64,000 bases of DNA from the IMG/VR virus record IMGVR_UViG_3300044496_000045, one strand, 5' to 3'. Positions 12,909 through 50,498 of this stretch are shown here, one piece after another. How positions within the stretch are numbered: the stretch's first letter is position 1; each line of letters opens with the position of its first letter. The notes beneath the pieces are model-generated. The model had not been told where the DNA came from, made no database searches, and saw nothing but the letters and a program-made list of their open reading frames with translations. Both the position numbers and the translations under genes were made by a program. Origin of the DNA: a virus.

Positions 12909-13646
12909 ATGAGCAAATGGGGATGGGCGACACGCATCGGCGGCTACGCGGCATCGCCGTTTACGTTCGGCATGTCGGTCCCGGCGGCGAATATGGCGGC
13001 CAGTGCGATCGAGCGGAAGCAGGCGTCCAACGATCAGCCGACTGCGGGTAAACCCGGTGACGGCAGCATCGACATCAATCAACTCCTCAAAGATCGATCG
13101 GATCGCCTCGGCCAGGAAGGATCGGATCTCCGGCAACAGGGGCAAGAGGCGCTGTCGCCGGTCCTGGACTATTTCAAAAAGCTGATCGGCGGCGATCCGG
13201 CGGCCATGATGGAGGCGACGGCGCCCGAGCGTGGCAAGGTGATTGATCAGTACGACGCCGCCCGTCAGTCGATTGCGCGATTCGCGCCACGGGGCGGCGG
13301 GCAGGGCGCGGCTATCTCCGGCAGTTACGTGCAACAGGCCCAGCAGCTCGGCGACATCACATCGCAGGCGCGACAAGGCGCCGTGTCCGGGCTGGCCCAG
13401 CTCGGGCCACAACTGCAGGCGCTCGGGTTGAACGCGGATCAGGTGGCCAGCATGGATCTCAACGCGCTGATCAACGCGGTGCTCACACGCGAGAGCCTGG
13501 ACGTGCAGAAGCGCGGGCAGACGATGGGCATGTGGAGCGACATCGGGAGTGGCGTCGGTGATCTGCTCGGCCAGTACCTCACCCGTGAGGGGGGCATGCT
13601 CGGGTCCAAGCCCAATACGGGCGGGACCGGCGTCGCGATGTCCTAA
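12909..13646 (+). CDS. Internal virion/DNA-ejection-type protein (245 aa)
   Basis: Gly/Ala/Gln-rich helical protein with GG-type hydrophobic C-terminal segment; position after the tail fibre. Confidence 0.55.
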   Translation: MSKWGWATRIGGYAASPFTFGMSVPAANMAASAIERKQASNDQPTAGKPGDGSIDINQLLKDRSDRLGQEGSDLRQQGQEALSPVLDYFKKLIGGDPAAMMEATAPERGKVIDQYDAARQSIARFAPRGGGQGAAISGSYVQQAQQLGDITSQARQGAVSGLAQLGPQLQALGLNADQVASMDLNALINAVLTRESLDVQKRGQTMGMWSDIGSGVGDLLGQYLTREGGMLGSKPNTGGTGVAMS

Positions 13647-13660
13647 AGGAGTCTGTGATC

Positions 13661-15127
13661 ATGGCGGCTGGTACAAGCGTCGGCGGATTCGGTGGAGGGC
13701 TCGCGCGAGGGCTGGCCTCGGCGCTCCGCAGCAACCGTGAGCGCCAAGATCAGAAACAGCGCGAAGCGACAGAAGCCGAATTTCGACAGTTCTCCACCCT
13801 CAATCCCATCGCCTTTCAAGCGGCACAGGACACCGGCGACTGGGCGACGTACCAAGGGTTTGTCACGCGGTACTTTCCCGAGCTGGAGAAGGCCGCGAAA
13901 AAGAAAGGCTTCTCGTTCGAGGAGCTAGGCCCCCTACTGTCGGCGCCTGGGCTGCAACCGCCTCTGGCCGTTGGTGCGGGGCAAACACCGGATGCGGCGG
14001 CGGCCGTGAGCGGCACATCCCCGAACGTCGCGATGCCGATGCCGGCGCCACCGGGTACGTCGGCTGTTGGTGCGACGGCGGAACCTCCCGTGCTGTCCAG
14101 TCGTGCTGCCGTCGCACCGGCCACACCGGCGGCGCAACCGGATCCGCGACAGAATTTCCTCGGCTTCCAGATGCTCACGCCCGAGCAGCGGGCAGAGCAG
14201 GAGACGACGCAGGAGATCGGCAAGCTCGAACGAACGCGCATGGCACAAGTGGGCCTCGCGCGGAAGATGCTGCCTCAGCTCAAAGCGATCGACGAGTCGA
14301 TCACCTTGGAAGATGCGCTGCGCTATGTGAGCAAAGGTGAGCTGGTCACACCGGCCAGTCGATTGGCGAGTGGACAGACGTACCGGTACGGCGTCGACCG
14401 CGAGGCGATCGCCAAAGCGATCTTCGACAAGCCGTTCGATGGGCTGTCGCGGCATGAGGCGGATATCGTGCTGCGTGAAGAGAAGACCATGCTCGAAGGG
14501 GAGGCCAAGGCGCGCGGCACTGGCACGGCGCAGGCCAAGTTCGAGGCGCCGGCTGACATTGCGGCGGCGCAGGCCGGTGGTGTCCCAGTCGGCACGCGCG
14601 CCGCCGATGTCGCGGGGCAGAGTGTCCCCACGCCGGCCGTACGCGAGCGGCGCAAGTCGGTCGAAGGGCTGAAGGCGGAGCTGACCCACATCAAAGACAA
14701 CCTCCTCGGCCCGCTGCCGAAGAAAGGGGAGCTGGGCGAGCTGGCCCCTGGAGCGGTGTACACCGTGCGCCGCCGGCTGCCGAAGTACCGCACCGAGATC
14801 GCGAAGCTCGAATCGGCGATCAACAACGTCGTCAACGTCATGGCGCGATCGGTTGGAGAACAGCGCGGCACACAGACCGAGCGTGATGCCTTGCGCGCGG
14901 AAGCAGCCATCGCCCAGATCCGCGACGCGTTGCTGACCGGGGACACCCAGGAATCAGCCGGCGCCCGGATTGACGAATCGATCCGCGTACTCGATGGGAT
15001 CATGGGGCGCCTGCCTGATGATCCGGTGCCGACCAAGCCGGCCGCGGGTACCCCTGCGGCAGCCGCTGCGTCGAGCGCCGCCCCGGCTGCGACGAAAGAC
15101 GCGCAGGGCAACTGGATCATTCCGTAG
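13661..15127 (+). CDS. Internal virion/DNA-ejection-type protein
   Basis: AGGAG RBS; N-terminal GGFGGGLARGLASAL typical of pilot/ejection proteins. Confidence 0.55.
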   Translation: MAAGTSVGGFGGGLARGLASALRSNRERQDQKQREATEAEFRQFSTLNPIAFQAAQDTGDWATYQGFVTRYFPELEKAAKKKGFSFEELGPLLSAPGLQPPLAVGAGQTPDAAAAVSGTSPNVAMPMPAPPGTSAVGATAEPPVLSSRAAVAPATPAAQPDPRQNFLGFQMLTPEQRAEQETTQEIGKLERTRMAQVGLARKMLPQLKAIDESITLEDALRYVSKGELVTPASRLASGQTYRYGVDREAIAKAIFDKPFDGLSRHEADIVLREEKTMLEGEAKARGTGTAQAKFEAPADIAAAQAGGVPVGTRAADVAGQSVPTPAVRERRKSVEGLKAELTHIKDNLLGPLPKKGELGELAPGAVYTVRRRLPKYRTEIAKLESAINNVVNVMARSVGEQRGTQTERDALRAEAAIAQIRDALLTGDTQESAGARIDESIRVLDGIMGRLPDDPVPTKPAAGTPAAAAASSAAPAATKDAQGNWIIP

Positions 15128-19750: not shown

Positions 19751-20352
19751 TCGATGATCTCCTCGGCATAGGGTTTCCGCTCGAACAGGAAGACGAATCG
19801 CACGCGGTGGTTGGTCGAGCGGGCGATCCCGATCTCGCCCCACAGATGCCATTCCGCGGCGCGATACATCGGCTTGACCGTATCGAGCCACGCGAGCTGG
19901 CCGCCGGGCTGCACGCAATAGGCCAGCTCGCGCATGACCTTGTGGCGGTTCGGCATCGGCGTGTCGTAGTTGATCGCGTCTTCCTCGGAGTAGGGCGGAT
20001 CGGCGGCCACGAAATTCATCGCGCCAAGTGTCAGTCGCTGCGAGAGCTGTTGGGCATCGGCGAGGAGATCCGGCGATCGCGCCGGGTTGCTATCGATCCG
20101 CCGGTACGATTCAGTCTGTGGGAGCGAGCCCGAGAATAGATGCCACCACAGCGCCCGCGGATAGTCCGGGAAGATGGCCGCGAGCCTGTCTAGGTAGCCG
20201 GGGGGATACGCGCCGTACAGCGGCGTCGTGTTGCGATAGTTGTTCCCGATCTCCCAGATGCCGTACAGCCAGCGGCCCCAGGTGACGACCGGTGGGTACA
20301 TCGGGTAGGCGGCAGCGTAGCTGGCCGCACGCTGCTCGACGGTCAGGGCCAT
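19732..20352 (-). CDS. Putative DNA amino-methyltransferase (DPPY)
   Basis: HLFSGS (motif I-like), RIDSNP..PDLLADA, FVAADPPYS, VQPGG. Confidence 0.7.
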   Translation of the reverse strand: MALTVEQRAASYAAAYPMYPPVVTWGRWLYGIWEIGNNYRNTTPLYGAYPPGYLDRLAAIFPDYPRALWWHLFSGSLPQTESYRRIDSNPARSPDLLADAQQLSQRLTLGAMNFVAADPPYSEEDAINYDTPMPNRHKVMRELAYCVQPGGQLAWLDTVKPMYRAAEWHLWGEIGIARSTNHRVRFVFLFERKPYAEEIIEWPLTP

Positions 20353-20364
20353 TCGATGATCTCC
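19745..20364. repeat. 18-bp exact direct repeat flanking the DPPY methyltransferase gene
   Basis: GGCCATTCGATGATCTCC at 19745-19762 and 20347-20364; on the minus strand each copy is RBS plus ATG of the next gene. Confidence 0.85.
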
Positions 20365-21068
20365 ACGTCGTCGGGCCGATCAGCCTCATAAGCCGGCGAC
20401 TCTGCGGGGATTGACGGCACTTCATTGCCCCACGCGTCCCAGCCCTCTCGACGCTCGCGCGCGAACAGTTCGAGATACGGCCCTGGAAACAGTTTTTCCA
20501 GCATCGAGTAGGCAGCATTCGGTTTGCGGGAGTGCTTCGACTTCGGCTCGACGATGAAGGCGTCTTCCTCGGCGAGCAGCAGGCCGTTGATCGATCGGGA
20601 CTTGACGAGCTTGGTGTACTGCCCGCGGGTGGCCAGTACCAGGTACTCGACGCAGCCGCGTGTCAGGTGGCCCATGCCGGGCTGGATGACGAGCTTCGGG
20701 ACGGACTTCCACTCGATCCCGATCTGCTGCTCCTCAACAGCGAGCCGCCCTTTGATCCACGGCACGATCTGCCGCGGCGTGAATCCCCAGCACGCGCACA
20801 CTCGGTTATGGATCCCTTCGAGCAGCATCGGTGGTGTGATCCAGAGCCCGAGCAGGGCGGTGTCGGCGATCAAGTGGCCCGCCAACAGCCCCTGCCGCTG
20901 CAGCTCGCCGCGTGGTCCCCGTTGCGAGGGCACGTACAGATCGCACACCTGCTGCACGCTCATGGTCGGGTACTGACTCACGCTCGACCGTTTCACGCCG
21001 TCTGCCATCTTGAGCGGCTGGGCGTACTCCCATGGCGGATCGGCAAGGGTGGTGGTGTAGGGGCTCAT
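20343..21068 (-). CDS. MT-A70 family adenine methyltransferase
   Basis: TLADPPW, YPTMS, LGLWIT, WGF, GMGHLTRGCVEYLVLATRG, HSRKP, YLELFARERREGWDAWGNE. Confidence 0.9.
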   Translation of the reverse strand: MSPYTTTLADPPWEYAQPLKMADGVKRSSVSQYPTMSVQQVCDLYVPSQRGPRGELQRQGLLAGHLIADTALLGLWITPPMLLEGIHNRVCACWGFTPRQIVPWIKGRLAVEEQQIGIEWKSVPKLVIQPGMGHLTRGCVEYLVLATRGQYTKLVKSRSINGLLLAEEDAFIVEPKSKHSRKPNAAYSMLEKLFPGPYLELFARERREGWDAWGNEVPSIPAESPAYEADRPDDVEIIEWP

Positions 21069-21523
21069 GGGTGGGCTGGAGGCGGTGCCTCCCCTCGATG
21101 GCCGCGCTCGAACCACGAGCGCGCGATCATGCCCTGTCGGACTTCGTCGACAAATTGCTGCAGCGGCCAACTCCGGCCCATGATGTGCGCCTGTGCTGGA
21201 TCGACATCCACGTACGACGGCATGTCGTGCTGCAGCGCCCAGTCGAGTTCCGCGCGCGCACCGGACGACTTCTCCCAGGTATGCGTCAGGATGATCGCGT
21301 CGCAGCGGGCGAGGAGCTGCAGCGTGCCGTCCAGCCAGAACTGATCGGTCAGCAGCTTGTCGAAGTCAGCCGTCATGGTGTGTGGGATGACGGGGTAGCC
21401 ACCGGCTTCCGCCACCCGCAGTCCGAGATCACGCGCCGCTTCGACGTGGCGGCGCACGACGATCGGCGACGGTCCCCGGAATGGCCCGGCAATGTAAATG
21501 AGCGGCAGCTTGTTAGTGGACAT
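21065..21523 (-). CDS. DUF4406/nucleoside 2-deoxyribosyltransferase-like protein
   Basis: IYIAGPF, PVIPH, LLARCDAIIL..WEKSSGARAELDWA. Confidence 0.8.
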   Translation of the reverse strand: MSTNKLPLIYIAGPFRGPSPIVVRRHVEAARDLGLRVAEAGGYPVIPHTMTADFDKLLTDQFWLDGTLQLLARCDAIILTHTWEKSSGARAELDWALQHDMPSYVDVDPAQAHIMGRSWPLQQFVDEVRQGMIARSWFERGHRGEAPPPAHP

Positions 21524-21764
21524 GCAGCTCGGCCTCCTCCAGCCGCTCCAGATGTTTGGTGATCCGATCGGCGACTTCGGCCGCGAACGTCGCGATGTCC
21601 GGCTTGCTGAACATGGTCGCCACGCCGGCTGTGATCGTCGCCGATATGAAATCGCGCACGATCGCACGGGCCAGCCCACGCCGATAGAAGATGCGGGACT
21701 CGGACACCGCCTGCTTGTAGGCTTCGACTTCCTTTATGCGACGTGCCGCGCCAGGAACCGCCAT
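21513..21764 (-). CDS. Hypothetical protein (83 aa)
   Basis: GGAGGA RBS; coupled into the operon. Confidence 0.65.
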   Translation of the reverse strand: MAVPGAARRIKEVEAYKQAVSESRIFYRRGLARAIVRDFISATITAGVATMFSKPDIATFAAEVADRITKHLERLEEAELHVH

Positions 21765-27163: not shown

Positions 27164-27333
27164 CGACGGTCCCCCGGTGATCGTCCACAGTTCGCACACA
27201 CGGCCAGATTCGCCCCGTTCACGTGGCTGCAGCCGCACGTCCAGTGCGATTGCGCGAGGAGATCCCGAATCTCCTGCAGGAGCTGACGCTGCAACTCCAT
27301 CGCTTCGAGCGTGAGACGTTCCACGTCAGTCAT
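27160..27333 (-). CDS. Coiled coil plus RanBP2-like zinc finger peptide (57 aa)
   Basis: ...HWTCGCSHVNGANLAVCANCG; ATGA overlaps; not in the ORF track. Confidence 0.6.
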   Translation of the reverse strand: MTDVERLTLEAMELQRQLLQEIRDLLAQSHWTCGCSHVNGANLAVCANCGRSPGDRR

Positions 27334-27821
27334 CGCTGCAACGCCTCCAGCAGAAACGCCTCCACCCTCGCGCCGATCCCCGGTGACTTACTCTCGCGAT
27401 TGCCGGCGATGTTGAGCGTCTTAATGCGCAGCCCGCGGATCCACCGCTGGACATAGGCAGGGTCCGGGTGAAACATCGTGCCCCCTTCGGGCCATTCGCA
27501 CGTCGTCAGGGGCTTGACGAGCGCCACGCACGCGGCCATGGTCAGCCCAGTCCCGCCGTCCGATCGATTCAGGAAGAACACGATCGTCGCGTCGGCCGCC
27601 CGGATGTTGTAGCGGGTGCGATGTTCATAGCCGTCATACCGGGACTCGACCATGCCGTACAGATCCTGGAACTCCGGGCGCGGGCCGGCTTCGGTCTTCC
27701 AGCCGTGCGGCATCATGCCGCCCGTCTTGTACCCGAGTACCTTGGCGGCACGCAGCCCGGCCTCGTCGGCACCGGTCTGGCCTCCGGAGATCACCATGGC
27801 GAGTGGCCAGCAGTTATCCAT
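27330..27821 (-). CDS. SLOG superfamily protein (cpYpsA / putative molybdenum carrier-like)
   Basis: VISGGQTGADEAGLRAA, GGMMPHGWKTEAG, RTRYNIRAADAT, LNIAGNRESKSPGI. Confidence 0.85.
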   Translation of the reverse strand: MDNCWPLAMVISGGQTGADEAGLRAAKVLGYKTGGMMPHGWKTEAGPRPEFQDLYGMVESRYDGYEHRTRYNIRAADATIVFFLNRSDGGTGLTMAACVALVKPLTTCEWPEGGTMFHPDPAYVQRWIRGLRIKTLNIAGNRESKSPGIGARVEAFLLEALQR

Positions 27822-35682: not shown

Positions 35683-35985
35683 TTAGCGGTTCCCACGCTG
35701 TTCCTCCTGGGCCAGAATCGCCCGCACATCCGCCGCGGTCAGCGTCGCTCGTTCCAGATCGAACGCCTTCTGGCCCTTCGGCGTATCACTGACCTTGAAG
35801 CTGACCCCATCGCCCTCTTCCAGTTCATCGAACAGCGCATTCGGGATACACGCGGTTCGGTGCAGGAAGTACTCGTTGCCCTCGGCATCCCGAATGAACC
35901 CGAAGCCTTTGGCACGCGTCGTCTGCATCCGGACGATCGCCCCGATCGCCCGGCCTTCGACTGTTTTTGTCACCTGTGTCGCCAT
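35683..35985 (-). CDS. Cold-shock domain protein
   Basis: KGFGFI..AEGNEYFLHRTA...FDELEEGDGVSFKV..TPKGQKA. Confidence 0.9.
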   Translation of the reverse strand: MATQVTKTVEGRAIGAIVRMQTTRAKGFGFIRDAEGNEYFLHRTACIPNALFDELEEGDGVSFKVSDTPKGQKAFDLERATLTAADVRAILAQEEQRGNR

Positions 35986-41519: not shown

Positions 41520-41564
41520 GTCAAATCATTGACATTGACAGCGTGCTTTTCATCGACGTAGGCT
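41520..41564 (+). promoter_or_regulatory. GTCAA-N4-TTGAC operator overlapping a rightward promoter
   Basis: GTCAAATCATTGAC 41520-41533; tandem TTGACATTGACA; TTGACA(41535)-18 nt-TAGGCT(41559). Confidence 0.65.
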
Positions 41565-41617
41565 CACCGCTTGCGCCATTTTCTTCTGCGCGCTCGACGC
41601 GGCTGACAATCTTCAGC

Positions 41618-42556
41618 ATGCCTCCAGCCTTCCCCGATCCCATTCCCGGCATCATCCCATTCGGCACCGTCACGATTTTTGCCGGCGCCCCAGGCGTCGG
41701 GAAGACCGCGATGCTCGCCGACTGGATTGTCCGCTGGCGGGACGGCCGCCCGATTTGGGGGCATTCGACCAACCCACCGTCCCAGTTCTGCTATTTGGCC
41801 GCCGATCGGCAATGGGCGAGTCATCAGCAGTGGTTCAACCGGGCTGGATACCCGGACATTCCACGGTATTCGGTTGCCGACGATCCCCTGTTTGACCTAA
41901 AAGAACTGCTAAAGCCCTACAATGCCCTGGATCTGTTCCGTCGCGCGCTGGATAAGGTGAATAATGGCACCTATCCGATCCCAGGCGCGCATGTGTTTGT
42001 CGATCCTGTCTCCCCGGTGTTCATTGCGGGATCCCCGAATAACTCCAGGGACGTGGCGCGTACCCTCCTCGGCATGTCCCGCGAATGTCAGCAACGAGAG
42101 ATCAATCTGACGTGCGCTGCACACTTTGGCAAGCAGCTCGCGGATAAAAACTCCCGGTACGCCCGTCCACAGGACCGTATTGCCGGATCGACCGCCTTTT
42201 CAGGATTTTCAGACACCCAAATCTACCTTATTGACCCCGAACTCCCCGATCATCCGTTCCATGTACTGGGCTGGAACCCGCGGCTTGCCCAGCCGGAAGA
42301 GTTTACCTGCACACGGGATTACAAAACTGGGCTATTCATCCCGTACGACTTTATTAAAGACGACGAAACGGCCTCACAGATCCTGGATTGCTTCGAGGCC
42401 ACCGGGACCACGTCACTTGCGGTCATCGTCGAGCGTGCCCAGCTCCAACACGGCCACCACCGCATGGTCGTGCGCCGGGCGCTCGATCGGCTCCTGACGC
42501 AAGGGCGAATCTGCAAGCTCGGCCGCGGCAAGTTCCAGCGCGTCCGCATCCATTAA
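41618..42556 (+). CDS. RepA/AAA_25-like replicative helicase with C-terminal winged helix
   Basis: TIFAGAPGVGKT, VFVDPVS, AAHFGK, AGSTAFSG; C-terminal TSLAVIVERA...VVRRALDRL..QGRI.K.GRGKF. Confidence 0.75.
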   Translation: MPPAFPDPIPGIIPFGTVTIFAGAPGVGKTAMLADWIVRWRDGRPIWGHSTNPPSQFCYLAADRQWASHQQWFNRAGYPDIPRYSVADDPLFDLKELLKPYNALDLFRRALDKVNNGTYPIPGAHVFVDPVSPVFIAGSPNNSRDVARTLLGMSRECQQREINLTCAAHFGKQLADKNSRYARPQDRIAGSTAFSGFSDTQIYLIDPELPDHPFHVLGWNPRLAQPEEFTCTRDYKTGLFIPYDFIKDDETASQILDCFEATGTTSLAVIVERAQLQHGHHRMVVRRALDRLLTQGRICKLGRGKFQRVRIH

Positions 42557-42599: not shown

Positions 42600-42780
42600 A
42601 ATAGCGACTTTTCCCTAAAGTACACATCTATATCCGATCACCGACTTTCAGCCGACTTTTCGGCGACCTTCCCCGACCAATTGCCCTGTACTTGGTACAC
42701 TTGGTCGTAATTTGGTCACTCAAACCGACCATTTTTATTCCTACTGTCTAAACGACTTAACCCTGTTTGGTCGGTGTTTG
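42600..42780. other. Candidate replication origin (AT-rich, CGACY/TTGGT iteron-like repeats)
   Basis: About seven CGAC(T/C) units and four TTGGT units in an AT-rich gap directly after the helicase. Confidence 0.4.
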
Positions 42781-43188
42781 GAGGGGGATGTCAGGGGCCG
42801 GGGGCGACGATCCGGCACTTTCGCCCCCCTCCTCCGGGCGCGATCGTGGCCAGTTTCCAGTACCCACGCCTCGCGCGTTCCCTGGATTGCAGATCGAGCA
42901 TAGGCGAGCCCGGCTGCCTTGTTTTTTCAGCCGCTTCTCCAGCTCGAACGCCTCCGCGCGCGTGTCGGTTTCCCACACGTCAGCGACGACGAAGTCACCC
43001 CCTGCCTGCAATAAGGCACTGATCAGCTTCGCTGACCGGCCATAACTGCGATCGCCCTCGAAGGTCGTTTCCCCTCGGTGCGCGGCCACGCGGTCTTCGA
43101 GCGCCATGCCCGTAGCGCCCAGATAGTGCCGGGCGTGCTTGTACGGGCTGTGCGCGAAGCAGAGTAAGTACACTACACCCTTTGCCAT
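42757..43188 (-). CDS. GIY-YIG-like endonuclease
   Basis: GVVYLL..HARHYLG...EDRVAAH...ELEKRLK...LCSIC. Confidence 0.65.
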   Translation of the reverse strand: MAKGVVYLLCFAHSPYKHARHYLGATGMALEDRVAAHRGETTFEGDRSYGRSAKLISALLQAGGDFVVADVWETDTRAEAFELEKRLKKQGSRARLCSICNPGNARGVGTGNWPRSRPEEGGESAGSSPPAPDIPLQTPTKQG

Positions 43189-43189
43189 G

Positions 43190-43882
43190 TCATTCCATCC
43201 AGAGGTTAAATTGCGTGGGGATGTCCCGCCTGCGTAGCTCAGGCAGTACACGATAGATCGCATGGACCGCCGCGCGCGTCAGTTCCGGCAGCAATGTACA
43301 CGGACTATCCGGGTATGTACTGTACTTTGCCCAGTCAGCCGCCGATAACCCCTTGACGATCTTAATCGCCGCATGCAGCCGGGCCAGATGTCCGCCACGG
43401 TTGACGTGCGGCCCTGCACACCATAAGGTACTTTCCTTCAATGGCGCGAATAAGCCTTTGTACGTGTCCCGATCACTGGACGTCACTCGACCATCGGCCG
43501 CCGGCAACGCCCACCATTGGCGTACAAGCCTCCGGTACCGCCGGACAACCGGATGATACTTCCACACCCGATCATCGTCCTGCGCCAGCTCCTTGGCCTC
43601 GCGCGCACACTCCACCATTGCCGCCAATAAGCGATCGCGCATGGGCATCGACCGGAGCCGCCGGGCTTCACGCTCCCGGCGGTCTGCGTGGATGTGTGAT
43701 TGAGTGCTCCGGCTGGACGCCTCCCGGAATTGGTTGAGCCTATCCCGGCGGGACTTCCACCGCGATCGCCGCCGGCTGACAATCCGCCGGCAGTGTGTAC
43801 ATTTGACTACCCGGAGCACAGCCCGACCGCGGGTGCTCAGCTCGTACCGGTCTGCCTGTCCAGGGTGTGTACAGGCGGTCAC
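43190..43882 (-). CDS. Arg-rich hypothetical protein with N-terminal C..H/CxxC
   Basis: GTGA-coupled start MTACTHP; 230 aa. Confidence 0.55.
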   Translation of the reverse strand: MTACTHPGQADRYELSTRGRAVLRVVKCTHCRRIVSRRRSRWKSRRDRLNQFREASSRSTQSHIHADRREREARRLRSMPMRDRLLAAMVECAREAKELAQDDDRVWKYHPVVRRYRRLVRQWWALPAADGRVTSSDRDTYKGLFAPLKESTLWCAGPHVNRGGHLARLHAAIKIVKGLSAADWAKYSTYPDSPCTLLPELTRAAVHAIYRVLPELRRRDIPTQFNLWME

Positions 43883-44073
43883 GGTTTGGGCTCGGTGTCC
43901 CGTAGCAGGGCCTGAAGCTGTCCGCGACACCATTGCAGATCACGTACAGCCGTTTCGTACTGCGCCTGCTCGCACATCCCGTGCTCGCTCAAGTCGTTCA
44001 GGATATCGGAGGCTTCGCCGTGGGCAAGCTGATGTACAACCGCCCGGATGATTGCGCGCTCTGTGTCGTTCAT
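43879..44073 (-). CDS. Hypothetical protein
   Basis: GGGAGG RBS before ATG 44073. Confidence 0.6.
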   Translation of the reverse strand: MNDTERAIIRAVVHQLAHGEASDILNDLSEHGMCEQAQYETAVRDLQWCRGQLQALLRDTEPKP

Positions 44074-44078
44074 GGCGA

Positions 44079-44702
44079 TCAATCCTCCCGGTTGCCGGCC
44101 GTGTCAAATTCGTATTCATTGGCGCGGATATGCTCGTCGACCTGTGCATCCGCGCTCTGATACTCGTCTTCGGTCCGCAGTTGCTTGTAGATCCATCGCT
44201 CGAAGTCCTGAACGATCTCCCGGAAGGCTTTGTACACCTCTTCCGGTATCGCTTCCCGCGTCGGATGGTCCACGGACAGATCCATCGGCCGGCGATCGTC
44301 ATCCTTGATAGACGCGGTTAATTGATAGCTGTACGCCTTCTGCAGGGTGTACAGTTGATCGGCGATCGCGTGGAGTACCGTATCCTCCGGCGCCTCCCGT
44401 CGAATGGCCGCGGGCGCCTGTTTGGCGTACGCGTAATCGGCTTCGATCCAGGCGCCATCGGATTGACAGTACCCCAGACTCCACCAAATAGACGGATCCT
44501 GTCGTGTACTGCCTCCCATCAGTTTGACGGGATGCCGACGGATGCTGATCCCCAGTATCGCGGCCATGCGATCCGCGTCTTCGATGATGTACTCGAAGTC
44601 GTTACTATCCCGACAGCCGCGGTACCAGTCCCGCGCGCGCTCCTTGGCCTTGTCGCTCAGCTCGTCAAACTGGTACAGCGTGGTTACTTTTTGTCTGGAC
44701 AC
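44079..44702 (-). CDS. Conserved mobile-element hypothetical protein (possible antirestriction-region gene)
   Basis: LYQFDELSDKAKERARDWY...FEYIIEDA...ANEYEFD..G pattern common in phage early and plasmid leading regions. Confidence 0.65.
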   Translation of the reverse strand: MSRQKVTTLYQFDELSDKAKERARDWYRGCRDSNDFEYIIEDADRMAAILGISIRRHPVKLMGGSTRQDPSIWWSLGYCQSDGAWIEADYAYAKQAPAAIRREAPEDTVLHAIADQLYTLQKAYSYQLTASIKDDDRRPMDLSVDHPTREAIPEEVYKAFREIVQDFERWIYKQLRTEDEYQSADAQVDEHIRANEYEFDTAGNRED

Positions 44703-45034
44703 AGCTCCGCCTTTCTCGCAACGTCACGCCAGAATGGCGCGTACGCGAACGGTACATCGTACCAAGTCCCGCCTTCGACCTGATTAACGAAGGTCGTCGC
44801 CGTGGCATGCTTGCCGCGCCGATCATGGCCATAATGGAGTAACAGGATCCGTACCTCCTCAGTTGCGGGCAGGTACAGATCGCTGTAATGGTCGGCGTGT
44901 GGGATCCCCCGCTTGACGACTTCATCGTACAAGGTCGGCGCCCAGTCGTACGGTACCGGTTGCGGCTGGGCGCCTTGCTGGCCCAGCTCGCGCCAGAGGC
45001 GATCCTGATTACGTGGCGATCGGCGTGTTCGCAT
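44684..45034 (-). CDS. Hypothetical protein (116 aa)
   Basis: HADHYSDLYLP...WYDVPFAY..FW. Confidence 0.6.
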   Translation of the reverse strand: MRTRRSPRNQDRLWRELGQQGAQPQPVPYDWAPTLYDEVVKRGIPHADHYSDLYLPATEEVRILLLHYGHDRRGKHATATTFVNQVEGGTWYDVPFAYAPFWRDVARKAELCPDKK

Positions 45035-45611
45035 GTTGCCACCTTTCGACCATATCGCGGGCTACCGCCTTCGTTACGCACACAGTCTCCGATAGACTCC
45101 AGCAGATGGTACCCGGCTGGAGTGCAGTACCGTTCCAGGTCCGCGCCATGATCCCGCGTTCGCGGTTGCGTGCGCGTACCAGTTCCCTCACGGCGAAGTC
45201 CAGCCCGTCCCACTTGGACAAGGCGATCAAGTTCAGGTCCGGGTACACGCGCATAAGCTGTTCGCGGTTTGTGATCTGGAGTACGTATCGCTCCAGCTCT
45301 GGCAGGCCGATCAGCCGGGCGATCCCCAGATAGTACGTATGATGATCGATCCGGCTGTTCATGTAGTCCGATCGCGTCCAGTCGTCGCGCTCGACGCGTG
45401 GCGCTACCCACACGGATCCGCGATGTTGGTTGTACGTGGTCACGTTGTAATCGCTGAGCATAAATAGCGCGTGCATGGGCGGATCCCAGCTCGTCCCGCC
45501 TCCCTGATTTAGCGGATCCCGTCCGCTAATCAGGTACACGTCTGGCGCCTCCGGGTGTGGTTGACACACAGGGACGCCGGGGTACATCGCGCGCCATTCC
45601 TGAAACGTCAT
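45009..45611 (-). CDS. Hypothetical protein (200 aa)
   Basis: GAGGAG RBS; coupled. Confidence 0.65.
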   Translation of the reverse strand: MTFQEWRAMYPGVPVCQPHPEAPDVYLISGRDPLNQGGGTSWDPPMHALFMLSDYNVTTYNQHRGSVWVAPRVERDDWTRSDYMNSRIDHHTYYLGIARLIGLPELERYVLQITNREQLMRVYPDLNLIALSKWDGLDFAVRELVRARNRERGIMARTWNGTALQPGTICWSLSETVCVTKAVARDMVERWQHANTPIAT

Positions 45612-45766
45612 GATTGATGTATCTCCTCTATCGGGTACCGTTCCGATAGTTCTGTTAATAGCCGGTTGCGAAGGCGGTTGTATTCTGCCTCCGCTAAGGC
45701 TAACGTCTTCGCTGCCTCAGTCACCTGATCGATCAGGGACCACACCTTGACGCGCGCGGGGATCAT
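45608..45766 (-). CDS. Small coiled-coil protein (52 aa)
   Basis: ATGA overlaps on both sides. Confidence 0.55.
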   Translation of the reverse strand: MIPARVKVWSLIDQVTEAAKTLALAEAEYNRLRNRLLTELSERYPIEEIHQS

Positions 45767-46071
45767 CGGTTTGGCCGCCCTGTCTCGTCCAGGCCGAGAT
45801 CTTCGCACGTCTGGACAAACATAAATCCAAATTCCCGTGTTTTGATGATGCAGCCGTCTGTAAACGGCGGCAGGTTCCGACGTTGCGCCACATAGCCGGC
45901 GCCATACTCGCGCGGATTCTCAGGCAGGCAGAACAACCCCCAGAGCGCAGAGGTAGACGTGTACGCGGTCTGCTTGTACCCCAGTGCGCGCGCGATCCTC
46001 TCTGCCGCGTCGAAGTCGTCGCCGATAAACTCGCGCTGTGTAATCGGCGGGATTGACAGCCCTTCAGCCAT
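45763..46071 (-). CDS. Hypothetical protein (102 aa)
   Basis: GAGGAGGAGG RBS. Confidence 0.7.
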   Translation of the reverse strand: MAEGLSIPPITQREFIGDDFDAAERIARALGYKQTAYTSTSALWGLFCLPENPREYGAGYVAQRRNLPPFTDGCIIKTREFGFMFVQTCEDLGLDETGRPNR

Positions 46072-46108
46072 GGATCGATCCTCCTCCTCGGTTGCAGCCC
46101 TGCAGCCG

Positions 46109-46384
46109 TTAAAACGTGATCGGCGCGTCTTTGTACGTGTACCCTAGCGCCTGCCGTACCCGTGCGGCTGTCTGATTCTGCCGCCGTACCGCGTTGCTGT
46201 GCTTGCCTCCGGCCATCCGCCGGCTAAGGTAGGCAGACAGCCGCGCGTATGCTGTCGCTGCCTCGGCTGCCTCCCGTTCGATCTCCTGCCGCGCGTCTAG
46301 CGACAGATTGTTATACGTCGCCTCCCACTTCACCATCGGCAGGAGGATCAGATCAGCCGCGGTTAACCGTGTACGTATCGCCAT
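46109..46384 (-). CDS. Hypothetical protein (91 aa)
   Basis: GGGGGA RBS; helical basic protein. Confidence 0.65.
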   Translation of the reverse strand: MAIRTRLTAADLILLPMVKWEATYNNLSLDARQEIEREAAEAATAYARLSAYLSRRMAGGKHSNAVRRQNQTAARVRQALGYTYKDAPITF

Positions 46385-46420
46385 TAGTCCCCCCAGACGA
46401 TATTAAACTGCATGGCCGGC

Positions 46421-46864
46421 CTACTCTGTGCCGATCAATCGGCGCCACGTGCCCAGCGTACGCCCAGCCGCGCGCCAGTGTGCCCAGCCGCGATCGCGCT
46501 CGCGCGACGCACGGCTAATCGTTTCGCGTAAGGTGTCTTTAACTTCGGTGGGATAGTGATCCCGGACGATACCGGAGATCAACGGACCGTGAGAACCGTA
46601 CGCCTTTTCGGCGTCCTGTACCATGGCGTAGTACGCCTTGAGTACGTGATCAGCCGCGCGCGCGGCATGCGTCGCCTCGCGTACGTGATCCTCTTTCGTC
46701 CAGGTGGCAAACTGGGGGAACTGTCGAAATAGTCGCGGTTCGTCCAGGATCGTGATCTGCCGTGTCCACTTGTAGCACGGCTGAAACGTGATCCGGTACG
46801 GGTACCGGTACGCGCCGGACATATCCCGATCTTCCGTCCAAGTGCTATTTATCATCCGCGGCAT
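46421..46864 (-). CDS. Hypothetical protein (147 aa)
   Basis: GGAGGAGGAG RBS downstream of the promoter at 46922-46950. Confidence 0.7.
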   Translation of the reverse strand: MPRMINSTWTEDRDMSGAYRYPYRITFQPCYKWTRQITILDEPRLFRQFPQFATWTKEDHVREATHAARAADHVLKAYYAMVQDAEKAYGSHGPLISGIVRDHYPTEVKDTLRETISRASRERDRGWAHWRAAGRTLGTWRRLIGTE

Positions 46865-46921
46865 TGTGCTTAGCTCCTCCTCCTGATCCGCCTAAGCAAC
46901 GTATCGGCTGATCTCTGCATT

Positions 46922-46950
46922 ACCTTAACATGGCGTTATTACCGTGTCAA
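46922..46950 (-). promoter_or_regulatory. Leftward sigma70-like early promoter
   Basis: Minus strand TTGACA-17 nt (ending TGT)-TAAGGT. Confidence 0.7.
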
Positions 46951-47065
46951 CAGGTAATCCAGGATGTACACGTACACACCTACTGCGACACTCCAGCCGG
47001 CTAGCATGGCACTCGCTAGAACAATCCAGCCCGCTAGACGCATGGCCGGCCAGACACGGCCGCGT

Positions 47066-47440
47066 CTACTGTACGCCATGGCGATCGCCGTACGCCTCTA
47101 CCCAATCGCCCCACGAGGTAAGCAGGTACTTCCCCCGCGTGTAGTCGTAGAGGATCGTACTGTCGTACGTATCCCCTTGATTACAGTACTCCGCTACGGG
47201 CTGCGTACAGGATCGGCCCCATATCGCTTCAGTCCCGTGTGTACCGAGGATCCCGTCTATCGCGTGCATACGTGTTTCGGGCTTCGCCGGATCTGGCGCG
47301 TGATAGCACTGCGTACGCCATACCTCGGTACGTGGTACCTCGAAGGGTGAGATCTGGCCACGTATGATCCCGATAATCTGCTGTGCTTGATCCTCGGTTA
47401 TCTGTAGCCGTTCCACTAGCCGCGCGACTGTGAACGCCAT
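47066..47440 (-). CDS. Conserved phage early hypothetical protein
   Basis: GTHGTEAI...YCNQGDTYDSTILYD...TSWGDWVE pattern. Confidence 0.75.
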   Translation of the reverse strand: MAFTVARLVERLQITEDQAQQIIGIIRGQISPFEVPRTEVWRTQCYHAPDPAKPETRMHAIDGILGTHGTEAIWGRSCTQPVAEYCNQGDTYDSTILYDYTRGKYLLTSWGDWVEAYGDRHGVQ

Positions 47441-47444
47441 AGCC

Positions 47445-48038
47445 TTACGCCTCCCAATCCAGGGACAACGCCCAATCGCGCAAGGTATCCCCTGCAGAGC
47501 CGATCGTGTTATGGCCGTTGTCAGACCAATAGATCGCCGCGATGTGCTCAGGGACTTCGACCAATCGCGCGCGTTGCGCCAACGGTACGCACTGCAGATC
47601 TAGCGGTAGTCCGTCGTGCCCAATCGGCCCACTAACCGTGATTGACTTACCGCCGATCCGGATCTGGCCCATCATAAAATGGCCACACTGGCGCAGAGCG
47701 CACGATCGCACGGCCGCCCAGAGTTTCCCCTTGCCATTTGGGTACACGGGTACAGGCAAACCGGATCGGATCCCTGCATGCGCGTCGCACCTGGTACGGC
47801 CGATCGTGCATGCGCGTGTGTACGCCTCAATCGCGGCAGGTGTCGGATCGTCTATTCCCTGCACACCTGCGATCGCGGCTGCGTACTCTGCGGACAACGC
47901 GCGACACTCCAAACAATGCGCGCGTTGTTCGTCTAATGCCTTGTAATCGTTCCAGGAGAACAACGCGAGGTATTGACCACGGCCGGATCGTTGTTCTGTG
48001 CCACGGTAATAGCCGGAAGACGTTTTCCTGATAAACAT
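47445..48038 (-). CDS. Hypothetical protein (197 aa)
   Basis: GGAGG RBS; several Cys/His. Confidence 0.7.
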   Translation of the reverse strand: MFIRKTSSGYYRGTEQRSGRGQYLALFSWNDYKALDEQRAHCLECRALSAEYAAAIAGVQGIDDPTPAAIEAYTRACTIGRTRCDAHAGIRSGLPVPVYPNGKGKLWAAVRSCALRQCGHFMMGQIRIGGKSITVSGPIGHDGLPLDLQCVPLAQRARLVEVPEHIAAIYWSDNGHNTIGSAGDTLRDWALSLDWEA

Positions 48039-48042
48039 GGAT

Positions 48043-48618
48043 CTATGCCTCCCGTCCGTACATGCCCGGTTTGGCCGGTTTGCAATCCGTCCAGGTGTAA
48101 TACGCGAAGTGGCGCGTACCGCCGATCCGCGCGAATGTCTCCGCAGGAGTCTCCTCGGTCACATCAAACGCGGCAAACGTGGTACCCGTGTACGGATGTG
48201 TACGATCGACCTTACGGAGCTTGTTATCTGGGCACAAGTACCAGTCCGTCCCGTCTATCTCAGCTCGACTGTACCAGGCGTCGCCTCCGTGGATCGGCTG
48301 TCGCCATAGATCCATCTGGAAGACGGCATCAAACGCCTGATGTGCGGTACCATCGCGATCGTTGATCAGGCGCAAGTACTCGCCTATGACAACGGCCGGA
48401 TTCTCATGTAGATCGAATGTGGAGGGATAGCACGGGTACACGGCCGTAACGGGATCAGGTGTACCGTACTCGTCTGGATTGCTGTACTGTACATGTACAC
48501 GCGATCGGGATACCTTGATTACCTCGTATCTGTGACAGACTCCACTAGCCCGCGCGCACATCGCGCGAAGATTCTCCAGGGATACCGTACGGACCTTGTG
48601 ATCGAATTGCGTTTTCAT
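48043..48618 (-). CDS. Hypothetical protein (191 aa)
   Basis: AGAGGAG RBS before MKTQFDHK. Confidence 0.65.
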   Translation of the reverse strand: MKTQFDHKVRTVSLENLRAMCARASGVCHRYEVIKVSRSRVHVQYSNPDEYGTPDPVTAVYPCYPSTFDLHENPAVVIGEYLRLINDRDGTAHQAFDAVFQMDLWRQPIHGGDAWYSRAEIDGTDWYLCPDNKLRKVDRTHPYTGTTFAAFDVTEETPAETFARIGGTRHFAYYTWTDCKPAKPGMYGREA

Positions 48619-48640
48619 GGCGCAAGACTCCTCTTGTGTG

Positions 48641-48772
48641 TTAGCGGCCGGCCGGCCGGGTAATCGGCCAATTCCGCCCAGTGTGTACAGACTCCTGCAG
48701 TGCTTCAAACATGGCGCCTAGTGCAAGGATCCCGATCGCGATCGCAAAGAGAATCCCCAGTAGTACACGCAT
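48641..48772 (-). CDS. Small membrane protein (43 aa)
   Basis: MRVLLGILFAIAIGILALGAMFEAL...; AAAGGGG RBS; not in the ORF track. Confidence 0.55.
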   Translation of the reverse strand: MRVLLGILFAIAIGILALGAMFEALQESVHTGRNWPITRPAGR

Positions 48773-48775
48773 GAT

Positions 48776-48973
48776 CTATCCCCTTTCCTTGAAGTCCGAT
48801 CGGCCCATGGTAATCGGCCGGTACCCGTACGATCGGAACTGTGTCGCGCCTGTCTCGCTGTTGTGTGTCACGTACACTTGATCGACCTTGTACCTGTACC
48901 CGAATGCCTGTACTTCCAGGACTTGGTACCAATGGCCGATCGTGTCTTGTATGTACTCGCCAGTGTGAAACAT
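48776..48973 (-). CDS. Hypothetical protein (65 aa)
   Basis: GGAGGG RBS. Confidence 0.6.
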   Translation of the reverse strand: MFHTGEYIQDTIGHWYQVLEVQAFGYRYKVDQVYVTHNSETGATQFRSYGYRPITMGRSDFKERG

Positions 48974-48977
48974 GGCG

Positions 48978-49571
48978 TTAGATCCCTCCGTCGAGCTTAC
49001 CCGCGCATTCCGGCCCTAGCCCGGATTCTATGCTCGACGGGACTGTGAGCGCACGGCCGCAACGCGCACACCGGCCGATATGGTAGAAGGTCGCCGGATC
49101 GATCGGCAGCCCGCGCCAGATCCGGCCGATCGCCCAGTTGAACGCCTTGATCGGTGTGCTGTCGAGTGTGTACTTGCTGGCGCGCGTGATCCGTACCTGC
49201 CCGGTCTGGACGTTGAGCAAACCGCCGTACGTGTAATCGCTCAGGTTATCCGGACCAGTCAACAGCGATACGAAGTACGCCGGCTGTGTGTACTGGCTGC
49301 CGGGCTTCGGCTCTGCCTTGCTGACCTTGAACGTGTATCGGCTATCCTTCCCCTGCAAGGTAAAGATCGCCTTACCTGCCAGTACAAACCGTCTGCACGC
49401 GTCGCCAGCGATCGGGACTTCGGCCGGCTGTCCAGGTGTCGCGGGCTGCCGATCGTTGACTGGATCGGTGTAATCCTCTGTCCCGTCGTATTGACGCCGG
49501 CTATCGGTCATCTCGAAAGCTGGGCCGCCGACGATCGCGTGTTGAAGCTGGGCTAACACTCTGTGATCCAT
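48978..49571 (-). CDS. DUF6011 domain protein
   Basis: C-terminal GRCARCGRALTVPSSIESGLGPECA; AGAGGAG RBS before MDHRVL. Confidence 0.8.
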   Translation of the reverse strand: MDHRVLAQLQHAIVGGPAFEMTDSRRQYDGTEDYTDPVNDRQPATPGQPAEVPIAGDACRRFVLAGKAIFTLQGKDSRYTFKVSKAEPKPGSQYTQPAYFVSLLTGPDNLSDYTYGGLLNVQTGQVRITRASKYTLDSTPIKAFNWAIGRIWRGLPIDPATFYHIGRCARCGRALTVPSSIESGLGPECAGKLDGGI

Positions 49572-49640
49572 CGTCTGATCTCCTCTACGCCGGACCGTTG
49601 CAGCCGGCCTGTTGTGCGCTACTCTATCGCGCATAGCGCC

Positions 49641-49670
49641 ACGTTAATCCAGCTATCGGCCACGTGTCAA
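49641..49670 (-). promoter_or_regulatory. Leftward sigma70-like early promoter
   Basis: Minus strand TTGACA-18 nt-TAACGT upstream of the DUF6011 gene. Confidence 0.6.
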
Positions 49671-49718
49671 CGCCTCACTAGTGCCCGATCGCAGATCCCG
49701 TGCAAAAGCGTATAGACC

Positions 49719-49750
49719 GTCAAGCAATTGACAGGCGTCAAATCGTTGAC
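49719..49750. promoter_or_regulatory. Two perfect GTCAA-N4-TTGAC operators in tandem
   Basis: GTCAAGCAATTGAC 49719-49732; GTCAAATCGTTGAC 49737-49750. Confidence 0.7.
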
Positions 49751-49859
49751 ACCTGTGTGACAGGATTGTAAGTGGCAGGAATGCCGCACGATCGGGCAAG
49801 ATCGGGCGATCTATCCGGCCGGAGGCATGCGCGCGCCATACCTTCCCCCGTGAGTCTCG

Positions 49860-50065
49860 CTAGGCTGTCCAGGTGCCTGATCATAGTGCCAGCTTAACGC
49901 ATGGCGATCGCCAGTCTGCTAGTCTGTACGCACCTGCAGACTAGGCTAGGCTGTCCCGTCCAGGTGTACGCACGGGCTAGATCGCGCCAGTTACCAGTAC
50001 TGCACACCACACCACGGTACCGTCTAGTACTGCACGCGACTGCACATAGGTGCCTATAGATGTAC
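49860..50065. repeat. Patch of short imperfect repeats rich in CTAG/GTAC/TGCA
   Basis: CTAGGCTGTCC x2, AGTACTGCAC x2, ACATAGGTGC x2; six CTAG in 49860-50027. Confidence 0.55.
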
Positions 50066-50146
50066 ATAGGTGCATGTATTGTCCAAGGGTACCCCGGTCC
50101 GACCCCACGTGAGCCCGATCCAGCGAGAGGTAGTATTTTTTCACCC

Positions 50147-50230
50147 GTCAATTTTTTCACTGTCAATTTTTTGGCACCTGCCCAGGTTCTGCACGAGATC
50201 AGGGCACACACCCACCGTCAGCACATTGAC
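50147..50230. promoter_or_regulatory. Three one-mismatch GTCAA-N4-TTGAC operators upstream of the late operon
   Basis: GTCAATTTTTTCAC 50147-50160; GTCAATTTTTTGGC 50162-50175; GTCAGCACATTGAC 50217-50230, followed by TTGACATTGACA. Confidence 0.6.
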
Positions 50231-50269
50231 ATTGACAGAACGCACAAGATTGGCGAGACTCGCACCACG

Positions 50270-50434
50270 ATGGACGTGAATACCGCGATGTTGCTGTATC
50301 TGCGCGATCGCTATGCGTCGGTGGCCGGTGATCTCACGACCCTCCTGACGCGGTACCTGAACACCGAAGTGACCGCCGATTCGGCCACGGCCCGGTTTCA
50401 GTTCCTGATCCAGGAGGCGCTGGCGGCGGCGTAG
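50270..50434 (+). CDS. Small helical protein (54 aa), first rightward gene
   Basis: MDVNTAMLLYLRDRY...; directly after the operator cluster. Confidence 0.55.
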   Translation: MDVNTAMLLYLRDRYASVAGDLTTLLTRYLNTEVTADSATARFQFLIQEALAAA

Positions 50435-50498
50435 AAGACACTAGACTCGGCAGCCGCCTGGGTGCGACACTGCCGACGCAGGAGGAGGAACAGAACGC

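Follow-up and report, generated by a model that had tools for sequence, protein, structure and literature searches.

Why is a four-base palindrome, GTAC, packed into a single operon of a phage genome and several times scarcer around it? The question is raised by IMG/VR virus record IMGVR_UViG_3300044496_000045, of which a stretch of 64,000 nucleotides (the window) was analyzed. On balance, the results speak for a pressure that acts directly on the nucleotide word. Our preferred reading, tentative and somewhat short of even confidence, is that selection on the DNA sequence retains GTAC as an iterated recognition word, one confined to one early-type operon of a clade of related phages. The window covers the greater part of an uncultured, podovirus-like phage genome (63.7% G+C) and encodes terminase, portal, an internal virion protein with a lysozyme domain, a UDG-PolA fusion and a PIF1-type helicase; no close record was found in INPHARED. 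Genes run rightward over 1–19.5 kb, leftward over 19.7–49.6 kb and rightward again from 50.5 kb, and the GTAC-rich block is the first leftward operon after a divergent control zone at 49.6–50.5 kb. The operon comprises about 16 small open reading frames (ORFs), only three of which have family matches (DUF6011, phrog_5162 and phrog_25437), all three of unassigned function. It is labeled early by position only, as a run of small ORFan genes leading leftward from a divergent control zone.

The size of the enrichment was established first by counting. GTAC occurs 112 times between 42700 and 49700 (16.0/kb, about one site per 60 bp) and 272 times in the remaining 57 kb (4.8/kb, one per 210 bp), a 3.35-fold contrast, and maximum-likelihood segmentation with two boundaries placed the rich block at 43100–50100 with a log-likelihood gain of 55. 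A preliminary description had claimed region-specific enrichment from hand counts in five intervals, all of which proved exact (11 sites in 47066–47440, 9 in 48721–48960, 8 in 48361–48600, 8 in 43201–43560 and 3 in 13621–14040). The observed/expected (O/E) ratio from zero-order composition was 4.5 in the block and 1.4 outside it. Shuffling the block with dinucleotides preserved gave 31.7 ± 4.9 sites compared to the 112 observed (z = 16). Codon-preserving shuffles, in which amino-acid order and the codon usage of each gene stay fixed, gave 67 ± 5 compared to 113 observed in the block genes (O/E 1.69, z = 9) and 165 compared to 214 in the other genes of the window (O/E 1.29). The regional enrichment was, therefore, borne out, as the density is not uniform over the genome and the excess is retained under both kinds of shuffle.

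The most direct evidence on what is enriched comes from silent sites. The key test scored the base at four-fold-degenerate third positions directly before a TAC codon. G occupied 45 of 51 such positions (88%) in the early genes of the window and 109 of 130 (84%; 69–92% per phage) in the pooled early blocks of five phages, compared to 39% before TAT and 40% before other codons in early blocks. In non-early genes, G preceded TAC at 54% of the sites (58% in the window alone and 81% in the relative L028). At four-fold sites before TAC, each of the other three bases is depleted, so the bias is a preference for G and not an avoidance of C. Tyrosine codons following G are, in turn, TAC more often than TAT. 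Because the excess of G is confined to TAC and TAC is chosen over TAT after G, the favoured unit is the whole tetramer GTAC, not GTA, TA or the G|T junction. The earlier suggestion of synonymous choices favouring GTAC within coding sequence is, thus, upheld for part of the excess, in the window and in the pooled five phages.

The excess is also independent of reading frame. Measured against position-specific base composition, GTAC O/E in the three frames was 3.2, 5.2 and 4.9 in early genes and 1.3, 1.0 and 1.8 in other genes; the xGT|ACx frame uses no tyrosine or valine codon, so the effect is one at the nucleotide level. Across the five phages, GTAC ranked first of 136 tetramers (combined Z 14.2), all top 5-mers and 6-mers contained GTA or GTAC (the top 5-mer being GTACA/TGTAC) and, alone among the NTAN classes, GTAC was up by 2.4-fold or more in each phage. 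The ratio GTAC:(CTAC+GTAG) shifted from 0.6–2.0 to 1.0–4.0 in early blocks, and the flanking preferences of GTAC sites were strand-symmetric.

Other descriptions of the signal were tried and rejected. There is no longer motif, as the sequence around the 112 sites holds no more than 0.08 bit per position, the enriched hexamers are GTAC with arbitrary flanks and AGTACT occurs only twice in the block. Purine–pyrimidine alternation, or Z-DNA, does not drive the excess: the fraction of alternating steps is 0.556 compared to 0.537, and GCAC, CGCA and CACG, which lack TA, are depleted. The trimer GTA/TAC is not the unit, as 71% of these trimers lie inside GTAC and G is not preferred before TAT. A general preference for G|T junctions was dismissed because G is found at just 37% before other codons starting with T. 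A second palindrome, GATC, is present at about 4.5-fold its zero-order expectation genome-wide (about 15/kb) and ranks above every other word against codon-preserving shuffles, in early genes as in the rest (O/E 1.6–1.8). It has no regional contrast, at 16.9/kb in the block and 14.9/kb outside.

Comparison with relatives separates a maintained trait from an inherited one. A metagenome scan and an exact-protein look-up yielded five syntenic relatives (L023, L026, L028, L029 and L030; L027 was grouped with L026, having an identical gene set), with common genes at 45–88% amino-acid identity. All share one architecture, consisting of the divergent control zone, the block of small genes, an opposite-strand AAA_25 gene and then replication genes. 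The preliminary description had proposed looking for the same bias in the early regions of relatives, and it is present in all six of the six clade members (Table 1). Codon-shuffle O/E in early and other genes was 1.69 and 1.29 in the window and 1.55 and 0.97, 1.49 and 1.22, 1.47 and 1.23, and 1.48 and 0.86 in four relatives. Tyrosine makes up 3.6–4.9% of early and 1.9–2.4% of other residues in the relatives. In the more distant members, other TA contexts are up by just 1.35–1.8-fold, so the GTAC-specific component stands isolated there.

Eight orthologue pairs between the window and L023 (61–86% nucleotide identity) contain 57 and 54 GTAC sites, of which 34 are shared and the remainder gained and lost in balance. 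Silent third positions in these pairs are conserved at 82–90% inside GTAC compared to 64% outside (p = 0.003 and 1e-5), and a G before TAC is conserved at 93–94% compared to 62–74% for other third-position G. Unrelated cassettes are equally rich, with 16.7/kb at 46072–48042 of the window and 14.1/kb in the segment that takes its place in L023 (L023:3280–4840). Because silent sites inside GTAC are better conserved and nonhomologous cassettes reach the same richness, the density is maintained and not simply inherited.

The trait follows the clade and its operon, not the gene families within it. Homologues of the phrog_5162 protein from 13 other phages are tyrosine-rich and have G before 18 of 99 TAC codons, compared to 8 of 11 in the window. 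A locus bearing the 200-residue early gene (L031) and not the clade architecture showed no GTAC enrichment. A property of the gene families was, therefore, rejected, as both the phrog_5162 and the 200-residue family are unenriched outside the clade. Equally rejected was a general trait of lower-G+C early regions in high-G+C phages, as no enrichment was found in the mapped early region of phiKMV and no early GTAC rise in the lower-G+C blocks of eight other IMG/VR phages. Loci L004–L019 showed no early enrichment. IMG/VR scans with three clade proteins (the 221-residue, the 477-residue and the DUF6011 protein) gave no matches, and scans with the terminase and phrog_5162 proteins returned only loci without the early block, or outgroups. 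One phrog_5162 homologue (L009:10001–10648) is an exception, with G before 7 of 11 TAC codons in a neighbourhood of genes that are not GTAC-rich.

The limits of the enrichment are those of one transcription unit. Intra-operon spacers carry 8.3 GTAC/kb when pooled and 7.4–9.6/kb across all five phages tested. The divergent, TA-rich promoter zone is unenriched in L026, L028 and L029 (only 1.6–3.0/kb), and four of five phages have close to background density in the AAA_25 gene on the opposite strand. In the control zone 49635..50498 of the window the density is 9.3/kb, and the same zone of L023 has 7.4/kb. Because the spacers are enriched while the promoter zone of L026, L028 and L029 and the AAA_25 gene in four of the five phages are not, the unit of enrichment is the transcription unit, and the enrichment stops at both operon limits.

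Such limits are also what an RNA-level target would give. GUAC or UAC(A) in the early transcript could be where an endoribonuclease cuts or an RNA-binding protein binds, of host or phage origin in either case, and so sets the timing of early mRNA decay; T4 RegB acts on GGAG, and several MazF and Kid toxins cleave at UAC and UACA. The coincidence with exactly one transcription unit, spacers included and both the promoter zone (L026, L028 and L029) and, in most members, the AAA_25 gene excluded, fits this idea. So do the preference of the sense strand for TACA (56 compared to 32 for its complement) and the rank of GTACA/TGTAC as top 5-mer. A palindromic word cannot itself show strand bias. A palindrome is, however, what duplex recognition would be expected to produce, and an RNA word would be palindromic with a prior chance of only 1 in 16. 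Moreover, 112 of the 168 sense-strand TAC trimers fall within GTAC, the flanks are strand-symmetric and the protein scans turned up no RNase gene. We regard an RNA-level target as quite unlikely.

Because the word is palindromic and its flanks are symmetric, the most likely reader of GTAC would be a symmetric protein acting on duplex DNA, whether a dimer that binds it or a methyltransferase. A 4-bp site is not specific alone, so such a reader would sense the density of sites (about 1 per 60 bp compared to 1 per 210 bp) and not single sites. The early operon could, in this way, be marked or coated as a unit, with shut-off of early transcription as one possible outcome and the distinction of parental from replicated DNA by methylation state as another. 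The phage MT-A70 methyltransferase is one candidate for the reader or writer, and its gene was the only methyltransferase gene found among the proteins scanned. A related proposal, which we consider possible although somewhat unlikely, is a density-coded DNA barcode in which GTAC occupies silent codon positions and is rewritten at gene swaps, so that a factor would treat the operon as a unit through binding or through its adenine methylation state. The MT-A70 protein has no close solved or curated relative, and against bacterial genomes its whole-protein matches reached at most 34% identity in scattered phyla, with no host indicated. Homologues at 50–93% identity lie on phage-sized metagenome contigs (44–69 kb).

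Several points weigh against selection for a word that is read. No reader was recognised among the proteins scanned, none of the early proteins has a Pfam or NCBIfam DNA-binding, nuclease or methyltransferase match, and the spacing of GTAC sites has no helical periodicity. The operon-exact limits and the poor promoter zone of L026, L028 and L029 fit an RNA-level or transcription-coupled cause equally, and a context-dependent mutation or repair process would leave the same silent-site bias and the same conservation. Most of the raw contrast, in addition, belongs to composition, with about two thirds of the excess due to a general loss of TA avoidance. TA density is 44/kb in the block and 16.5/kb elsewhere, a 2.7-fold difference, so that roughly 2.7 of the 3.35-fold GTAC contrast is a general TA effect, and TA outside GTAC also rises by 1.35–2.4-fold in early blocks. 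GTAC stands about 3-fold above the dinucleotide-preserving shuffle genome-wide (3.5 in the block and 3.0 outside), and its order-2 Markov O/E is just 1.26–1.44 in early blocks compared to 0.92–1.33 elsewhere.

These figures raise the prospect of a compositional by-product, in which the block consists of fast-evolving, exchangeable accessory genes with weak codon adaptation and tyrosine-rich proteins and nothing reads GTAC. The word would show the largest absolute rise as the commonest TA context in G+C-rich DNA. The composition of the block agrees with such an origin: G+C is 59% compared to 64% elsewhere, the G+C fraction at third codon positions (GC3) is 0.60–0.75 compared to about 0.8, all NTA codons are raised, tyrosine stands at 4.9% compared to 2.7% and the avoidance of TA is absent, with rho(TA) at 1.09 compared to 0.51. 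GTAC already makes up 29% of all TA outside the block. The block is, furthermore, mosaic, and independent assemblies break at its edge. A by-product of this kind, however, fails to predict G at 84% before TAC yet 39% before TAT, the shift in GTAC:(CTAC+GTAG), the 5-fold excess in the xGT|ACx frame or the extra conservation of silent positions inside GTAC. The lower-G+C early blocks of other high-G+C phages, including phiKMV, show no such rise. We judge such a by-product unlikely. The preliminary description of the region as deliberately loaded with GTAC is, thus, only partly sustained: a GTAC-specific regional surplus of about 1.3–1.8-fold is left, while much of the raw fold-change is a shift in TA, GC3 and tyrosine.

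A biased mutation or repair drive could generate the same word without any function. Here, a GTAC-specific methyltransferase together with very-short-patch-type mismatch repair, or another context-dependent process, would turn words close to GTAC into GTAC where heteroduplex or transcription-exposed DNA is frequent, which would fit a mosaic early operon. The excess of CCWGG in Escherichia coli, driven by Dcm and Vsr, is a model for such a drive. A palindromic target, a frame-independent effect and sites that seem conserved would all follow. The recombinational mosaicism of the block and the weaker bias outside it (G before TAC at 58% in non-early genes of the window and 81% in L028) point the same way, as does the depletion of the transition precursors GCAC and GTGC (0.69–0.90-fold) in all five early blocks. 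The depletion of GCAC, however, matches the general drop in G+C, the proteins scanned yielded no Vsr-like or C5-methyltransferase gene, and the escape of the adjacent TA-rich promoter zone and of the opposite-strand gene is left unexplained. A repair drive seems to us distinctly improbable.

The preliminary description had further placed the block in the first-entering DNA and proposed, as examples, that its GTAC sites are methylation marks, decoys or titration sites for a host methyltransferase or defence protein, or points where a translocase or phage protein loads. In the version weighed here, the decoy or titration site would target a host restriction or defence protein, and the protein to be loaded would be a translocase. 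GTAC is the site of the RsaI family of Type II enzymes. The avoidance expected of such a target in unprotected phage DNA is not seen, as GTAC lies at or above expectation everywhere. Enrichment in early-type genes would suit a decoy, as would a codon-shuffle O/E of 0.86–1.29 outside the block, which means that no part of the genome avoids GTAC. No genome terminus was located within the window, however, and the block is internal in the 68-kb contigs of relatives, at differing coordinates. The enrichment is also bounded on both sides by operon limits and does not run to a DNA end. To our knowledge, the translocase loading words described so far are polar and not palindromic. The assignment to a first-entering region could, therefore, not be established, and we hold the decoy or loading-site explanation to be highly improbable.

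Phage genomes are known for purging short palindromes, and a literature search turned up no report of phage early regions enriched in GTAC. Among described phenomena, the highly iterated palindrome HIP1 of cyanobacteria (GCGATCGC) comes closest, a short palindrome far above expectation that is placed in coding sequence through silent choices, kept as a trait across relatives and linked, by suspicion and not by proof, to a methyltransferase. GTAC likewise is over-represented relative to composition and codon usage, in all frames and in non-coding DNA, and relatives share the trait with turnover of sites. HIP1 differs in being 8 bp long and spread over whole chromosomes, whereas GTAC is 4 bp, a modest 1.5-fold or so over codon shuffles and confined to 43.1–50.1 kb in one phage operon; the background of 4.8/kb matches the 4.7/kb of phiKMV (62% G+C). 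The Dam/SeqA system offers a second likeness, as clusters of GATC at oriC and in phage P1 show how a 4-bp palindrome can be meaningful through local density and methylation state. A site of 4 bp could mark a region only by density sensing of this kind. GATC is uniform here, however, GTAC is spread over 7 kb of coding sequence and not over a compact origin or pac cluster, and no SeqA-like gene was identified.

Systems that act on transcription units or transcripts are less close in form. The stoperators of cluster A mycobacteriophages, bound by L5 gp71, are many copies of one site distributed through transcription units that they silence. They are asymmetric 13-bp sites, oriented and mostly intergenic, whereas GTAC is a 4-bp palindrome that mostly falls inside codons; no information was found outside its 4-bp core, compared to the specific, asymmetric and oriented sites of at least 12 bp that a stoperator would need. 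T4 RegB resembles the present case in that its tetranucleotide, GGAG, is enriched in early transcripts as the target of a phage-timed RNase. GGAG is, however, strand-specific and located in ribosome-binding sites, and no RegB-like gene was found among the window proteins scanned. Restriction-site avoidance in phage genomes is selection on short palindromes through silent sites (PMC6286503). It shares with the present case both the silent-site selection and the statistics, with the opposite sign, as GTAC is enriched.

A palindrome actively kept in one temporal gene class would point to an additional layer of information on top of the coding sequence, one that gene annotation misses. Should there be a reader, it would offer a new entry point to the way in which phages time or protect the early programme and would explain the twofold tyrosine content of the early proteins, with a DNA word shaping protein composition. 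If there is none, the operon would be a clean example of a strong, lineage-specific and context-dependent mutation or repair bias that mimics silent-site selection.

Table 1. Coordinates of features in the window, with GTAC densities of the early block and the rest of the sequence in relatives.
Feature	Coordinates	Strand	Evidence or remark
GTAC-rich block, one leftward operon	42700..49700	-	112 GTAC; maximum-likelihood segmentation; codon shuffle; ORF and family matches
DUF6011 gene in block	48978-49634	-	
phrog_5162 gene in block	44079-44702	-	
phrog_25437 gene in block	45009-45611	-	
One of the densest genes of the block	48043-48708	-	17 GTAC, 25/kb
One of the densest genes of the block	48776-48973	-	8 GTAC, 40/kb; 10.6% tyrosine
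124-residue ORF	47066..47440	-	11 GTAC, 29/kb; no homologue in relative L023
Cassette without counterpart in L023	46072..48042	-	16.7 GTAC/kb
Divergent control zone, right boundary of block	49635..50498	.	GTCAA-N4-TTGAC palindromes and local repeats
AAA_25 ATPase gene, left boundary of block	41543..42556	+	GTAC 3.9/kb, near background
MT-A70-family methyltransferase	20343..21170	-	Pfam PF05063, E 1e-17
Replication-module genes (YpsA SLOG, cold-shock-domain and DUF7768/DUF4406 proteins)	27330-27821, 35683-35985, 21065-21679	all -	
Relative L023			GTAC 14.4/kb in early block, 5.0/kb in rest
Relative L026			GTAC 8.9/kb in early block, 2.9/kb in rest
Relative L028			GTAC 8.5/kb in early block, 3.5/kb in rest
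Relative L029			GTAC 6.8/kb in early block, 2.8/kb in rest
Relative L030			GTAC 9.6/kb in early block, 2.1/kb in rest

The control zone of the window contains local repeats, namely TGTACGCAC at 49925 and 49965, AGTACTGCAC at 49996 and 50026, and CATAGGTGC at 50045 and 50065, together with GGTACC at 50017. These repeats are not kept as such in relatives, and the local GTAC-GCAC repeats of the zone were set aside because relatives do not conserve them. Whole cassettes have been swapped between the window and L023, including 44079–44702 and a number of genes in the interval 45608–48973. Assemblies made independently from metagenomes, of this phage or of related ones (L020, L021 and L024), stop at about 43083–43408, no more than a few hundred bases from the left edge of the block, and these breaks at about 43.1–43.4 kb are best explained by strain mosaicism. 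In a more distant contig (P0012), the AAA_25 domain is fused to Toprim, which suggests a primase-helicase role for the AAA_25 protein.

The 200-residue early protein (45009–45611, minus strand) occurs clade-wide, with 37 invariant columns in 18 sequences. Its structure was predicted with a predicted local distance difference test score (pLDDT) of 91 and a predicted template modelling score (pTM) of 0.83 and had no Foldseek match in the PDB at E ≤ 0.001; the modelled fold may be undescribed. In L030 this protein is fused to a homologue of the upstream 102-residue protein (45763–46071, minus strand, in the window). Among the products of the replication module are a circularly permuted YpsA SLOG protein (E 1.5e-36), a cold-shock-domain protein and a DUF7768/DUF4406 protein.

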